Assembly (NCBI GenBank): GCA_033764955.1
Contig: JANRIL010000024.1
Coordinates: 96,001 to 160,000 of the forward strand
Length of the DNA stretch: 64,000 bases
Origin: Cyanobacteriota bacterium
GTDB lineage: Bacteria; Cyanobacteriota; Cyanobacteriia; Thermostichales; Thermostichaceae
Direction of reading: 5' to 3'
The notes under the pieces: generated by a model
The model's database searches: none
Told to the model about the DNA's origin: nothing
The model's input: the letters and a program-made list of their open reading frames with translations, nothing else
Made by a program: the position numbers and the translations under genes
Shown: positions 42,931 through 49,723 of the stretch, piece by piece
How the letters are laid out: the number at the start of each line of letters is the position of its first letter
How positions within the stretch are numbered: the first letter of the stretch is position 1

Positions 42931-43659
42931 ATGGCTGGCCTTTATCTTTATGGCATTCTTCAGGCTCCTGGCCCCCGCCACTTGAATGTGCAGGGGATTG
43001 ATCGACAGCCTGTACAGGTTCAGGTCTTTGATCCTTTGGTTCTTTTGTATTCCGAGGCTCAACAGGAGCGATATCTGGCCAGCCGTGCCAATCTGCTTGC
43101 CCATGAGTCAGTCTTAGAAAAAGTGATGGCGGAAGGACACCGCGCCCTCCTACCCTTGCAGTTTGGTCTGGTGGCTAGTGATTGGGAGTTGGTGCGCCGC
43201 GATCTGATCGAGCCAAAGCAGGCGGATTTAGTGCGACTCCTTCACCATCTAGAAGGGAAGCGGGAGGTGGGGGTGAAAGTGTTTTGGGATCCCGATCAGG
43301 AGCTGCAACTGGCTCTCAACGAAAACCCTGATCTGAAACGGCAACGGGATGCCATGGCGGGCGCACCCCTAGGTTTGGATGCCGTTGTCAAGATTGGGCG
43401 AGAGCTGGAGCAACTGCTGGAAAATCGCCGCCACCAAATTACGGAAACTTTTGTGGCAATCCTTTCTCCCCTAGCCAGCGACCGCGTGGAGGGGGAACTG
43501 CTTACAGAAAATATGGCCTATAACGGCTCTTTTTTGATCCATTGGGAGGATGAACCGTTATTTGCCCAAAAAGTCGAGGATTTGGATCATCTGTTTCAGG
43601 GGCGGTTACGCATCCGCTACAACAATTTTACGGCTCCCTACAATTTCACCAAATTGTAA
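42931..43659 (+). CDS. GvpL/GvpF family gas vesicle protein
   Basis: LYLYGI, RYLASR.NLL.HE.VLE, LPLQFG, REVGVK, IRYNNFTAPYNF. Confidence 0.9.
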   Translation: MAGLYLYGILQAPGPRHLNVQGIDRQPVQVQVFDPLVLLYSEAQQERYLASRANLLAHESVLEKVMAEGHRALLPLQFGLVASDWELVRRDLIEPKQADLVRLLHHLEGKREVGVKVFWDPDQELQLALNENPDLKRQRDAMAGAPLGLDAVVKIGRELEQLLENRRHQITETFVAILSPLASDRVEGELLTENMAYNGSFLIHWEDEPLFAQKVEDLDHLFQGRLRIRYNNFTAPYNFTKL

Positions 43660-44275: not shown

Positions 44276-44485
44276 ATGTCTAGCCAAACCCACGCTTCCG
44301 CTCAACCCCTCACTTTTACCGCCGAACAGGTGGCTGAGATTGCAGAACGTCTCGAAAAAGATACCTATGCTTCTTTGTTTGGTTGTCTAGAAGATTGGCA
44401 TGCTCTTAAGTCAGCCGCTTTTCATGCCCCTAATCTGGTTGCTCCCTACATCCATCTTCTAGAATTAGAGATAGACGAGGATTAG
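44276..44485 (+). CDS. DUF2555 family protein
   Basis: VAEIAERLEKD.Y..LF..LEDWH.L...AF..P.LV.PYIHLL; ATG 44276 with GAGG upstream. Confidence 0.8.
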   Translation: MSSQTHASAQPLTFTAEQVAEIAERLEKDTYASLFGCLEDWHALKSAAFHAPNLVAPYIHLLELEIDED

Positions 44486-44545
44486 CATCTATCTGACGGT
44501 AACCCCTCACCTAGCTATACCCATATCAATAAATTCAGGAGAGTC

Positions 44546-44767
44546 ATGCGCCTTAAGTCTCATGAATCCCCTCGCCACCAAGGCAGAAATCGCCGTGGCA
44601 AGGGTGGCACTGCTCGCAAGCGGCAACTGGATAAACGACAACGCGCCCTAGTGCAGCGGTTGAAACCAAACAAGAGTTCTGAGCCAGAATCGGCTTCCCC
44701 CTCTTCATCTCTCCTCAGGCAAGGACACGGATCCCTGCCTTTTTTATGGCTATTGCTGGCGGCGTGA
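44546..44767 (+). CDS. small basic protein; candidate ArfA/BrfA-like alternative ribosome-rescue factor
   Basis: AGGAG SD; 15 K/R in the first 40 aa with RRGKGG; intrinsic terminator inside the ORF; C-terminus LWLLLAA. The CDS is well supported but the function is inferred. Confidence 0.7.
   Translation: MRLKSHESPRHQGRNRRGKGGTARKRQLDKRQRALVQRLKPNKSSEPESASPSSSLLRQGHGSLPFLWLLLAA
44717..44745 (+). terminator. intrinsic terminator inside the coding region of 44546-44767
   Basis: AGGCAAGGA-CACGGA-TCCCTGCCT (8 of 9 pairs) followed by a T-run to 44745; the stop codon is at 44765. Confidence 0.6.
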
Positions 44768-46087: not shown

Positions 46088-46324
46088 CTCGCCGAACATT
46101 TAGGTCAGGTTGAAGGAGGGATCCCTCATCGGCTTCTAGAACTCATTGTTGCTGATGCTTACCGTTATGGAAAGCTCAACACCGCTGAAGTGGGTCAGCT
46201 CCTTCAATGACTAACTCGTCTTGCAACTCATATATTTTTGAAATGGGTGGGTACTTATCTAAACTATGATGAAACTGAATTCGACCCAGATCTTCAGACT
46301 CTCAAGGAGTTCAGAGCGCAATGA
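46088..46324 (+). pseudogene. UPF0175 family antitoxin-like gene remnant
   Basis: LAEHLGQVEGGIPHRLLELIVADAYRYGKLNTAEVGQLLQ*LTRLATHIFLKWVGTYLNYDETEFDPDLQTLKEFRAQ*; in-frame TGA at 46208 and no start codon. Its stop overlaps (ATGA) a MIIVSDTS start typical of DUF3368 PIN partners. Confidence 0.7.
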
Positions 46325-46347
46325 TTATTGTCTCTGACACCTCCCTC

Positions 46348-47165
46348 TGGATGTCTCGTTCTGGCTCTCCTTGGGGCTATAAAGGGTATGGCAAATGATA
46401 CACGATTTACCAGAGATTCCATAGATGGAGTCGTTTCGGGATTTGGGAAAGGATGTTCAATCACCTCATCAAAGATCTCGATTTAGAACATCTGATCATT
46501 GACTCGACAACGGTTTGCACTCACCCCTGTGCAGCAGGAAAAAAAGGGGAACAAGCTCTAAGAAGAAGCCGAGGTGGATATAGTACAAAGTACCAAGTTC
46601 ATGTAAGTGTGGATGGGATAGAACCCGCTAGTTTTTAGAATCACTGGAGGGGAAAGTTATGATAGTACTCAAGCAGAGGAATTGATAGATGGTTGGCAAG
46701 AGAAAAACACAAAAGTGATAGGAGACAAAGGGTATGATTCCAATAGATTAATTGATCAGGTAGAGGAAATATAGACAGTTATTCCATCTAAAAAGAATAG
46801 GAAGGTAGAGCAAGATTATGACAGATGCCTGATATTAAGGAGAGGCATTTAATCACAAGTGTTGAGTCTTAAGATTTTGAGGATCGCTGGCAAGTTATGC
46901 GTCGGGTCTAAGGATACAGAATTCATCTTGCTATTGACGCTATTCTCAATAAATCGACTTGGATTCCCAGCTCTGCTCCAGGAAATGTAAAGTTTTACCA
47001 TCACGATTCAACACTTCTGGCATTTATATAGAATGCTTTTTTCACAATCTGAAGCCGTATCGACATCTGTTTTCTCACTTTGACAAGTTGGCAAGGAACT
47101 TCTTGAGTTTTCTCTATTTTGTTGGCACTCTCTTATGAATTAAGTAACAGATCAACAAAACCTAG
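46348..47165 (+). mobile_element. degenerate IS5-family (IS427-like) transposase remnant, 5'-truncated
   Basis: RSGSPW...YGK*YTIYQRFHRW...IIDSTTV..HPCAAGKKG...SRGGYSTK; GDKGYDS; VIPSKKNR; ERHLI/ECFF..LKPYRH; stops and frameshifts; ends TCAACAAAACCTAG. Confidence 0.85.
46854..47019. mobile_element. 166-bp MITE / internally deleted IS nested in the IS5 remnant
   Basis: TIRs CACAAGTGTTGAGTC / GATTCAACACTTCTG (13 of 15 match); flanks GCATTTAAT and GCATTTAtAT (about 9-bp TSD); interrupts the ERHLI-ECFF motif. Confidence 0.75.
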
Positions 47166-47191: not shown

Positions 47192-47545
47192 ATGAAGCAG
47201 CTCCCAAACCACGAACAAGCCGTTATCCCATGTGCCAAGATCACCAAGTACCTTCTTTGCCTTGAGCACCCTGAAGGGGGCAGTAAGGCTCAGTTCTTTT
47301 TGTCATTCGGCTTTACCCTAGAATCCTGGCAAATACTTGATAGAGCCTTACGACAACATGCCCTCGATCATGAAGTGAGTAGAATCGAGCTATCTCAGTA
47401 CGGTATCAAGTATGTCATTGAAGGGAACCTTGACACTCCCGATGGTCGCTCCCCCTTTGTCCGATCCGTTTGGATCATTGACAATGGTGAGGAGAATCCT
47501 CGATTAACCACCGCTTATCCCCTAGACCCACCGGACAACGCATGA
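47192..47545 (+). CDS. DUF6883-like protein (putative toxin-type domain)
   Basis: LPN.EQA.I..AKI..YLL..EHP.G.SKA.FF...GF, YG.KY.IEG.L.TP.GR...VRSVWI......PRL.TAYP. Confidence 0.8.
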   Translation: MKQLPNHEQAVIPCAKITKYLLCLEHPEGGSKAQFFLSFGFTLESWQILDRALRQHALDHEVSRIELSQYGIKYVIEGNLDTPDGRSPFVRSVWIIDNGEENPRLTTAYPLDPPDNA

Positions 47546-48216
47546 TTAAGGAGCTTGATCTCATCGCCCTCTCCACCGATCTTCCCGCCTATGGCCTCAA
47601 ACAGGAAGATCGGGGAACAGTAGTTCATGTCTACAAAGATGGAGCAGCCTACGAAGTAGAGTTTATCAAAGAAGGTAAGACAGTTGCTGTGACTACCCTA
47701 AAGCCAGCTCAAGTCCGACCTTATCATCCAAACCCTAAAGTCCCCACTCCTTCCCACAGAGCCAGCTCACCCAAAACAACGCCCCCATCCACTCCCCCAA
47801 AAAAGCTAACACCCGGACTTAAATTAGTACTCCAGGAACTGATCCGCCGCCAACGCCCCTACTACCTACCCGAAGGATCCCCGATCCGTGGCTTAGATAA
47901 TCAACACTGGATCCTCTTCAACAAGCATCGAGATGCCGATAGTCTGTTCAAGAGGCTTGCTAACTTTCTAAGATTCGGAGATAAACAATCTCAATACAAA
48001 TTTCTACGGATCGATTTCCAAACTGCCACCATTACGGAATATATCCCCCGCCCAAATTATGACCTGCCTTCTCGCACCCTGATCCGCACGGCCAAACTCA
48101 GTACTATTGAGGAGTTTCTCCAGAAAGTCAGCACCACCAAAGAATCTGCACTCCAAGCCAATAGCTTTCTAGGGATCACTGGCAAACGCCGCCCCTCAAC
48201 TTCAGGATCCCGGTAG
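47542..48216 (+). CDS. DUF4926-domain protein with long C-terminal extension
   Basis: MIKELD.I.L..DLP.YGL...DRGTVVHVY.DG.AYEVEF; ATGA-coupled to the upstream gene; Pro/Ser/Thr linker then about 130 aa of unknown domain. Confidence 0.78.
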   Translation: MIKELDLIALSTDLPAYGLKQEDRGTVVHVYKDGAAYEVEFIKEGKTVAVTTLKPAQVRPYHPNPKVPTPSHRASSPKTTPPSTPPKKLTPGLKLVLQELIRRQRPYYLPEGSPIRGLDNQHWILFNKHRDADSLFKRLANFLRFGDKQSQYKFLRIDFQTATITEYIPRPNYDLPSRTLIRTAKLSTIEEFLQKVSTTKESALQANSFLGITGKRRPSTSGSR

Positions 48217-49651: not shown

Positions 49652-49723
49652 GCGGGCGTAGTTCAGTGGTAGAACGTCAGCTTCCCAAGCTGAATGTCGA
49701 GAGTTCAAGTCTCTTCGCCCGCT
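49652..49723 (+). tRNA. tRNA-Gly (CCC)
   Basis: Acceptor stem GCGGGCG/CGCCCGC, D-arm GTTC-AGTGGTA-GAAC, anticodon arm TCAGC-TTCCCAA-GCTGA, T-loop TTCAAGT; CCA not encoded. Confidence 0.96.

Follow-up and report, generated by a model that had tools for sequence, protein, structure and literature searches.

We have analysed a window of 64,000 nucleotides (nt) from a cyanobacterial genome of the family Thermostichaceae (assembly GCA_033764955.1, contig JANRIL010000024.1, positions 96,001 to 160,000 of the forward strand; positions below count from the first nucleotide of this window). The subject is a short open reading frame (ORF) that carries a hairpin and a run of six thymines ahead of its own stop codon. 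We will show that the ORF belongs to a family of small basic cyanobacterial proteins, and that a terminator-like element before the stop codon is conserved in this family at the level of DNA. The layout would yield messages without a stop codon, of the kind used by the ribosome-rescue factors ArfA and BrfA, and we weigh this reading against three other explanations.

The original prediction, made from the letters of the stretch, had described a candidate rescue factor with a non-stop architecture like that of ArfA, BrfA or ArfT. It gave the ORF 73 residues behind an AGGAG Shine-Dalgarno sequence, a very basic N-terminal half containing RRGKGGTARKR, and a hairpin with a T-run before the stop. 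All of these features could be confirmed at the locus (Table 1). Residues 1-40 contain 15 Lys or Arg and only 2 Asp or Glu, and the T-run ends 19 nt before the TGA. If the T-run is the 3' end of the transcript, the message would be stop-less and would encode a peptide of about 66-67 amino acids (aa).

An AlphaFold2 model of the ORF, built on a 119-row alignment, has a mean pLDDT of 71. Residues 1-20 are extended and are followed by a confident basic helix at residues 21-39, the linker is disordered, and the tail forms a short hydrophobic helix. Scans with Pfam and NCBIfam assigned no family to the ORF, and an Rfam scan of the site gave no match. Searching the PDB with this model by Foldseek returned 0 matches, and the ESM Atlas returned unnamed cyanobacterial clusters only.

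Table 1. Features of the ORF and its surroundings in the window.
Feature	Position	Strand	Basis or remark
Full ORF, 73 codons and TGA	44546..44767	+	MRLKSHESPRHQGRNRRGKGGTARKRQLDKRQRALVQRLKPNKSSEPESASPSSSLLRQGHGSLPFLWLLLAA; member of an unnamed cyanobacterial family
Shine-Dalgarno-like AGGAG	44537..44541	+	4 nt upstream of the ATG; read from the sequence
Conserved basic domain, residues 1-40	44546..44665	+	alignments; excess of third-position and synonymous differences
RRGKGGTARKR motif, residues 16-26	44591..44623	+	family consensus N-x-K-G-K/R-G-G-S/T-A-R
Predicted basic alpha-helix, residues 21-39	44606..44662	+	AlphaFold2 model m2b29e135a98c, block pLDDT about 90
Ser/Pro-rich linker, residues 41-57	44666..44716	+	variable in the family; predicted disordered
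Candidate terminator hairpin within the ORF	44717..44740	+	AGGCAAGGACACGGATCCCTGCCT; 5 + 3 bp with inner mismatch, -9.6 kcal/mol
T6 run	44740..44745	+	TTTTTT, read from the sequence; position kept in the family
Tail codons and TGA (44765-44767)	44746..44767	+	in read-through transcripts only; ends ...LLLAA

A terminator-like element within the reading frame

A word-indexed search gave 26 close homologues from Thermostichus, metagenome-assembled genomes (MAGs) of Synechococcaceae, and Gloeobacter, which are called 'hypothetical' wherever they are named. With an exhaustive phmmer search (E up to 0.001), 284 homologue clusters at 50% identity were obtained. The family is present in 114 of 401 sampled genomes of the phylum, namely in 114 of the 178 Cyanophyceae, which is the class of the window, and in 0 of the 223 others. 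By family, it was found in 24/25 genomes of f3, 40/45 of f7 and 0/29 of f18; from the genome sizes of 1.6-3 Mb, our guess is that f18 corresponds to the marine picocyanobacteria.

Alignments of 25 and of 119 members show that the conservation is confined to the first ca 42 residues, with the consensus (M)xRLK(R/S)(W/H)ESPRxxGRNxKG(K/R)GG(S/T)ARxRQLKKxxxxLxxKLK. Eleven positions (K4, E7, P9, R10, R14, N15, G18, G21, Q27, K30 and L39) are invariant in 119/119 members, and the wider set that is invariant or nearly so consists of L3, K4, E7, S8, P9, R10, G13, R14, N15, K17, G18, G20, G21, A23, R24, R26, Q27, K30, L35 and L39. Over all pairs of 83 of the 86 gene copies described below, the differences within the domain are distributed as 35525/21880/71070 over codon positions 1/2/3, and the differing codons comprise 50694 synonymous and 32625 non-synonymous cases. 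These counts show that the domain evolves as a translated protein under purifying selection, and it is conserved from Gloeobacterales to Nostocales.

The 3' ends of the genes were compared at 87 loci: the window copy, a second copy from the same genome, 15 named genome records, the 30 top-scoring matches, and 40 further loci that were chosen for their spread over families before any 3' end was inspected. One locus, at which the motif pattern missed the gene (L071), was excluded, leaving 86 copies. A site was called when a hairpin with at least 5 pairs and -7 kcal/mol or lower ended no more than 3 nt ahead of a T-run; the range scanned began 90 nt behind the ATG and extended to 200 nt beyond the stop.

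In 78 of the 86 copies, the hairpin and T-run lie inside the ORF, ahead of the first in-frame stop. Only 2 copies have the site solely after the stop, and 6 were left uncalled, one of which (L044) has a hairpin of -20.7 kcal/mol with an interrupted T tract within the ORF. In the 78 copies, the T-run starts 142-244 nt (median 182) behind the ATG and 5-168 nt (median 57) ahead of the stop, and the predicted non-stop peptides are about 50-84 aa long (median 63). Run over 135.6 kb of flanking DNA, the same detector called 0.85 (sense strand) and 0.91 (antisense strand) sites per kb, which corresponds to ca 0.12 expected sites per gene, and among 76 neighbouring ORFs a site was present in the last 150 nt of 11. 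The relatives are not independent of each other, and the counts stand without a P value.

Another of the uncalled copies, L057 (G089), has a frame of 107 aa with an in-ORF hairpin of -25.3 kcal/mol at nt 217-256 after the ATG and no T-run. Its message may be truncated by a different route.

The 78 sites are made up of 73 distinct hairpin sequences with 57 different 3' arms, and their median stability is -13.6 kcal/mol. Thermostichus-like genomes, for instance, have the arms GGCAGGG/CCCTGCC, a Gloeobacterales MAG has ACCGC/GCGGT, a Prochlorotrichaceae MAG has CCCCTAGG/CCTAGGGG, and large filament-type genomes have GGGGAAGA/TCTTCCCC. On average, 7.03 of the 8 nt before the T-run can pair with the upstream region of their own locus, compared to a mean of 6.04, and a maximum of 6.32, when the arms are swapped between loci in 1000 permutations. 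The hairpin arms are thus shown to co-vary. RNAalifold found 0 pairs when 49 of the 78 hairpin regions were aligned by MAFFT, since their hairpins are out of register, and the arm-permutation test was used instead.

The start of the T-run is found in all three codon phases (31/25/22 copies), and it is therefore a nucleotide feature and not a peptide motif; the patch 'P-AFF / LPFF / SLFF' in the proteins is simply the T-run translated in frame. The tails encoded behind it are 0-54 aa long. In 109 pairs of genes with a domain identity of 95% or more, the linkers are 50% identical and the tails only 19%, while the tails of distant pairs have 14-15% identity. The tail identity is thus at background even in near-identical genes, which argues that the full-length product is not selected. 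The comparative pattern expected by the original prediction, in which only some 40 residues are conserved while an in-frame terminator and a hydrophobic tail recur, was in this way looked for and found.

Proposed mechanism and copies without the terminator

What is established about intrinsic termination and about arfA and brfA leads us to infer the transcript ends and the tagging in the following mechanism. Transcripts of the family would end in the T-run, and a translating ribosome would stall at the stop-less 3' end. As long as trans-translation works, transfer-messenger RNA (tmRNA) and SmpB would add the tag ANNVVPFARKAAVLAA to the product of ca 66 aa, which would then be degraded. Once trans-translation becomes saturated or is lost, the product would stay untagged and build up. 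Its 42-residue domain, consisting of the extended N-terminal segment, the KGKGG(S/T) motif and the basic helix, would bind ribosomes with an empty mRNA channel and promote peptide release, for which it would most likely recruit a class-I release factor (RF1 or RF2). ArfA and BrfA recruit RF2. The channel-entry and release step is proposed from the motif and the basic helix only. We consider it quite probable that the family is gated by tmRNA through a non-stop message. For the fuller proposal, in which these small basic proteins, with a main transcript ending inside the frame, are release-factor-dependent back-up rescue factors, the chances appear to us to be evenly balanced.

A number of observations weigh against this proposal, and we begin with those that concern the element itself. 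The hairpin of the window copy, with an inner mismatch in its stem, is not called by a consensus terminator scan, the 91-nt stretch around it folds no better than shuffled sequences (z = 0.81), and in strength it ranks 72nd of the 78 family hairpins. Taken on its own, it is no more than chance would give; it is the recurrence across the family that is beyond chance, and the window hairpin draws its weight from the in-ORF site in 78/86 homologous copies. The weak hairpin also means that substantial read-through is possible at the window copy. Furthermore, the in-ORF transcript 3' ends are predictions from the DNA sequence.

A second group of observations concerns copies that end differently. 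In a minority of the cellular copies, an ordinary stop follows right behind the domain; these are L002, L054, L060 and L070, with 43-51 aa, and L076, with 62 aa. One of them is the second copy in the genome of the window (G000:C25:16698-16832, corresponding to L002 1501-1635, and to L148), which encodes 44 aa, ends with TAA, is 67% identical to the window copy, and has a hairpin without a T-run behind the stop. It is located among unnamed small ORFs at a contig end, a few kb from an ORF for a GH108/PG_binding_3 lysozyme, and these surroundings suggest that this copy may lie within a prophage.

Homologues are also found in viruses, in the form of 23 IMG/VR loci and of 6 phage records that cover 5 phages: S-CREM1, S-SSM4, S-SSM6b, DSL-LC02 and, in part, Acaryochloris phage A-HIS1. 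Three of these phages, S-SSM4, S-SSM6b and DSL-LC02, have no annotation for the gene. Of the viral loci, L146 is Synechococcus phage S-SSM4 1382-1507, L147 is S-CREM1, and L123-L144 are IMG/VR contigs. We could read 24 viral copies, with L145 excluded as a weak match within a long frame, and 19 of these 24 have an ordinary stop after 41-53 aa, the other 5 having an internal terminator. In several phage copies, KGKGG is moreover replaced by KSPKRS or RSKLAS. The hosts of the marine Synechococcus phages probably belong to f18, where the cellular gene was found in 0/29 genomes. The cellular and viral stop-type copies indicate that the activity of the protein is useful without gating as well. Since they end after the domain, they also point to the ca 42 residues as the working unit, and the in-frame terminator then looks like a regulatory add-on that is mostly kept by cells and mostly lacking in phages.

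Two further observations were made on the viral loci. In phage S-SSM4, a tRNA-Val gene (L146 1514-1585) begins 7 nt behind the stop of the family gene. On the IMG/VR contig of L145, the weak match, from position 801, is to family residues 2-28 (RLKSHESPRKQG...) and lies in a long frame that continues into P-loop ATPase-like sequence; it may be due to chance or to a fusion.

It could be argued from these copies that the family is an ordinary small basic protein, for which read-through or some other release suffices, and whose terminator overlaps a drifting frame end, so that any gating is incidental. The weak window hairpin and the stop-type copies in cells and phages would fit such a scenario, as would those copies in which the stop follows only 5-10 nt after the start of the T-run. 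However, drift would not be expected to produce an open frame in 78/86 copies with 73 different hairpins and a variable linker. The frame is open through linker and hairpin in 78/78 copies, which follows from the definition of the class, but the same stretch has stops in frame +1 in 16/78 and in frame +2 in 54/78. Also the background identity of the tails speaks against a selected full-length product. On balance, we find this explanation improbable.

We now consider the surroundings of the genes, on the basis of neighbouring ORFs from 45 loci and a Pfam scan that covered 63 of 88 picked ORFs. In the window, the gene is flanked by a 69-aa DUF2555/IsiD-like gene upstream (44276-44485) and by an AMMECR1 gene downstream, while the neighbours elsewhere include RNase_H_2, a Na/Pi cotransporter, an FMN dehydrogenase, an M48 peptidase, histidine kinases, glycosyltransferases and endonuclease V. 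No conserved same-strand downstream gene was found in the 45 loci, the families varying by lineage and many of the genes being convergent. This shows that the family genes stand alone.

These results bear on the possibility that the ORF is a leader peptide or attenuator, in which translation through the hairpin would control read-through to a downstream gene. A short ORF overlapping a terminator is indeed the classical layout, and a same-strand gene does follow in some loci; in 5 of 9 Nostocales-type loci checked (L020, L031, L039, L041 and L043), it is a tRNA-Gln(UUG) gene, located ca 30-110 nt downstream. But the missing conserved downstream gene disfavours attenuation, purifying selection on the 42-residue domain is strong all the way from Gloeobacterales to Nostocales, and the stop-type copies retain the domain without the terminator. 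This option is in our view very improbable.

Some further features of the window can be mentioned here. A GvpF/GvpL-like gene is found at 42931-43659 (Pfam E 1.9e-64; under the NCBIfam cut-off for cyanobacterial GvpF), separated from the DUF2555/IsiD-like gene by an unnamed ORF of 184 aa, and further gas-vesicle genes were not noticed in the scanned ORFs nearby. The region 46300-47140 contains short broken ORFs that give the impression of transposase remnants, and it is followed by a DUF6883/DUF4926 gene pair at 47192-48216 and a tRNA gene at 49652-49723.

Rescue machinery in the genome and in the phylum

The genome to which the window belongs is 89% complete. It encodes SmpB, RF1, RF2 and a one-piece tmRNA (G000:C2:89834-90229), the tag of which ends in VLAA. 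Within this 89%, ArfA (PF03889) was not found, there is no third RF-1-domain protein and therefore no ArfB, and NFACT_N, which would indicate RqcH, had no match.

The read-through end of the window ORF, LLLAA, resembles the VLAA of this tag, and C-termini in -LAA are protease signals. The original prediction had proposed that such an end acts as a built-in degron. This idea does not hold for the family: among the C-termini of 171 family proteins, 7 are AA and 5 are LAA, all from close Thermostichus-like relatives. The LLLAA end is at most a local feature.

Other rescue pathways are another point on which the proposal loses support. RqcH is present in 5/5 relatives that were checked, and its absence from the genome of the window is for this reason probably an assembly gap. 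In a count over 175 Cyanophyceae genomes, from which 3 genomes with partial ArfB matches had been dropped, the family and ArfB occur together in 56, the family alone in 55, ArfB alone in 38, and neither in 26; the two are thus not complementary. In a 2024 survey of 15,259 genomes in total, the 162 genomes of Cyanobacteriota/Melainabacteria contain smpB in 161, ssrA in 155, arfB in 90, arfA in 0, rqcH in 161 and mutS2 in 150 cases (PMC11633108). With RqcH being near-universal in the phylum, a further back-up is not obviously needed. [quoted passage not shown]

Homology searches point in the same direction. None of the 119 members matched the Pfam ArfA family (PF03889) at E up to 10, and a profile of the same 119 members gave one chance match (E = 7.3) when run against all PDB chain sequences; complexes of ArfA and BrfA are among the PDB entries. 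By hhalign, the comparison with a low-diversity alignment of 17 enterobacterial ArfA sequences resulted in a probability of 1.1% over 13 columns. The paired stretch is qGRNdKGkGGSAR with vEKnkKGKGSy~R, and the family motif is the only part that was paired with KNKKGKGSYMR of ArfA. The non-stop architecture of ArfA and BrfA, as originally claimed, holds at the DNA level, with 78/86 copies against 11/76 neighbouring ORFs, and it does not extend to a detectable homology with ArfA or BrfA. Finally, a complex prediction for RF2 of the same genome (alignment of 37) with residues 1-66 of the ORF (alignment of 119) gave a score of 0.00, which is uninformative either way.

The points just listed leave room for a different function behind a real, tmRNA-gated non-stop design. 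The protein could bind ribosomes or RNA and act by silencing, protecting or splitting ribosomes, or it could be a regulator that switches on a stress response upon failure of trans-translation. All evidence on the architecture fits equally well with this alternative, which also agrees with the lack of detected homology to known rescue factors, with the presence of ArfB in 56/111 family-positive genomes and with RqcH in the relatives; ungated cyanophage copies could in that case serve the take-over of the host. What speaks for release-factor recruitment instead is that, to our knowledge, only arfA and brfA, both of them rescue factors, have been shown to use the non-stop design, and that KGKGG(S/T) with the basic helix behind it is similar to those parts of ArfA and ArfT that bind the channel. 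We judge a function other than release-factor recruitment to be rather unlikely. If it nevertheless applies, the family would be the first non-rescue gene known with tmRNA gating.

Comparison with known rescue factors

A number of other relationships were considered and rejected. SmpB and ArfB use basic C-terminal tails to probe the empty mRNA channel, and inspection by eye finds DKRQ both in the Thermostichus-type members and in the SmpB tail of the window's genome (...RGKKLYDKRQSLKEKQ). However, hhalign against 28 cyanobacterial SmpB sequences gave a probability of only 0.07%, and the likeness is not supported. The GGQ peptidyl-tRNA hydrolase domain of ArfB is missing from the window ORF, which has no GGQ and no match to Pfam RF-1 (PF00472). 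AtpTheta (Norf1, atpT) could be discarded on account of its published features (10.1101/2021.07.30.454416). The present family differs from that description in its high conservation, in its pattern and in its occurrence in 0/29 f18 genomes.

No description of such a cyanobacterial factor, or of its motifs, was found in the literature searched, and the main text of a 2026 preprint that re-annotates Synechocystis contains no mention of non-stop messages, tmRNA, ArfA or ribosome rescue. The statement in the original prediction that no cyanobacterial factor of this type has been characterised agrees with these searches, and also with the figure of 0 arfA in 162 cyanobacterial genomes in the survey cited above (PMC11633108).

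As regards the wider significance, back-up rescue that depends on release factors is, as far as we know, limited to proteobacteria (ArfA), the Bacillus subtilis group (BrfA) and Francisella (ArfT). The present family is apparently unrelated to these, and has a known regulatory design in a phylum without a described factor of this kind. It is possible, although we put this forward only tentatively, that it constitutes a fourth, independently evolved class of release-factor-dependent rescue, occurring in about two thirds of the Cyanophyceae, checked by tmRNA in cells and ungated in some cyanophages. The family is a concrete candidate for what supports survival without trans-translation, and it can be tested in the standard model cyanobacteria. 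A screen of conserved small ORFs for a terminator before the stop can reveal rescue-type genes that homology searches miss. The presence of ungated copies in some cyanophages also calls for an explanation; possibly, these keep ribosomes free during infection.

The closest parallel in layout is BrfA (YqkK) of Bacillus subtilis. The brfA gene has 71 codons with a typical rho-independent terminator within the coding region, and the active form has 62 aa; it was shown experimentally that BrfA is kept low by trans-translation and that the residues behind the terminator are dispensable (PMC6881298). The family shares with it the small size and, in 78/86 copies, the in-ORF terminator before the stop. 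In BrfA, however, two N-terminal helices are present and the positive region is at the C-terminal end of the active form, whereas the family has its conserved basic part at the N-terminus, ahead of a variable linker of ca 20 aa. The two also come from different phyla.

In the case of Escherichia coli ArfA, the gene contains a terminator and an RNase III site ahead of the stop, and this results in a non-stop mRNA. The KGKGS motif and basic residues of the protein bind in the empty mRNA channel, and the hydrophobic C-terminal tail is dispensable (PMC6299226). The family resembles ArfA in having an in-ORF hairpin that would lead to a non-stop mRNA, and its motif N-x-KGKGG(S/T)-A-R can be set beside N-K-KGKGS-Y-x-R of ArfA. 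Residues K17, G18, G20 and G21 are invariant or nearly so in the form KGKGG(S/T)AR, which is ArfA-like but not identical, and is replaced in several phages. The differences are that ArfA has ca 27 residues before the motif, compared to ca 16 in the family, and that the arfA message is truncated by RNase III as well as by termination.

ArfT, which is known only from Francisella, is a protein of 40 aa with the sequence KKGGSTNKK; its gene has an ordinary stop and is not under non-stop mRNA control (PMC6299226). The latter is a difference from most of the cellular copies, but the ordinary stop has its counterpart in the stop-type copies of 41-53 aa. The comparison with ArfT of Francisella tularensis was made by the published motif only, KKGGSTNKK against KGKGGS, and by this measure the motif of the family appears intermediate between those of ArfA and ArfT.

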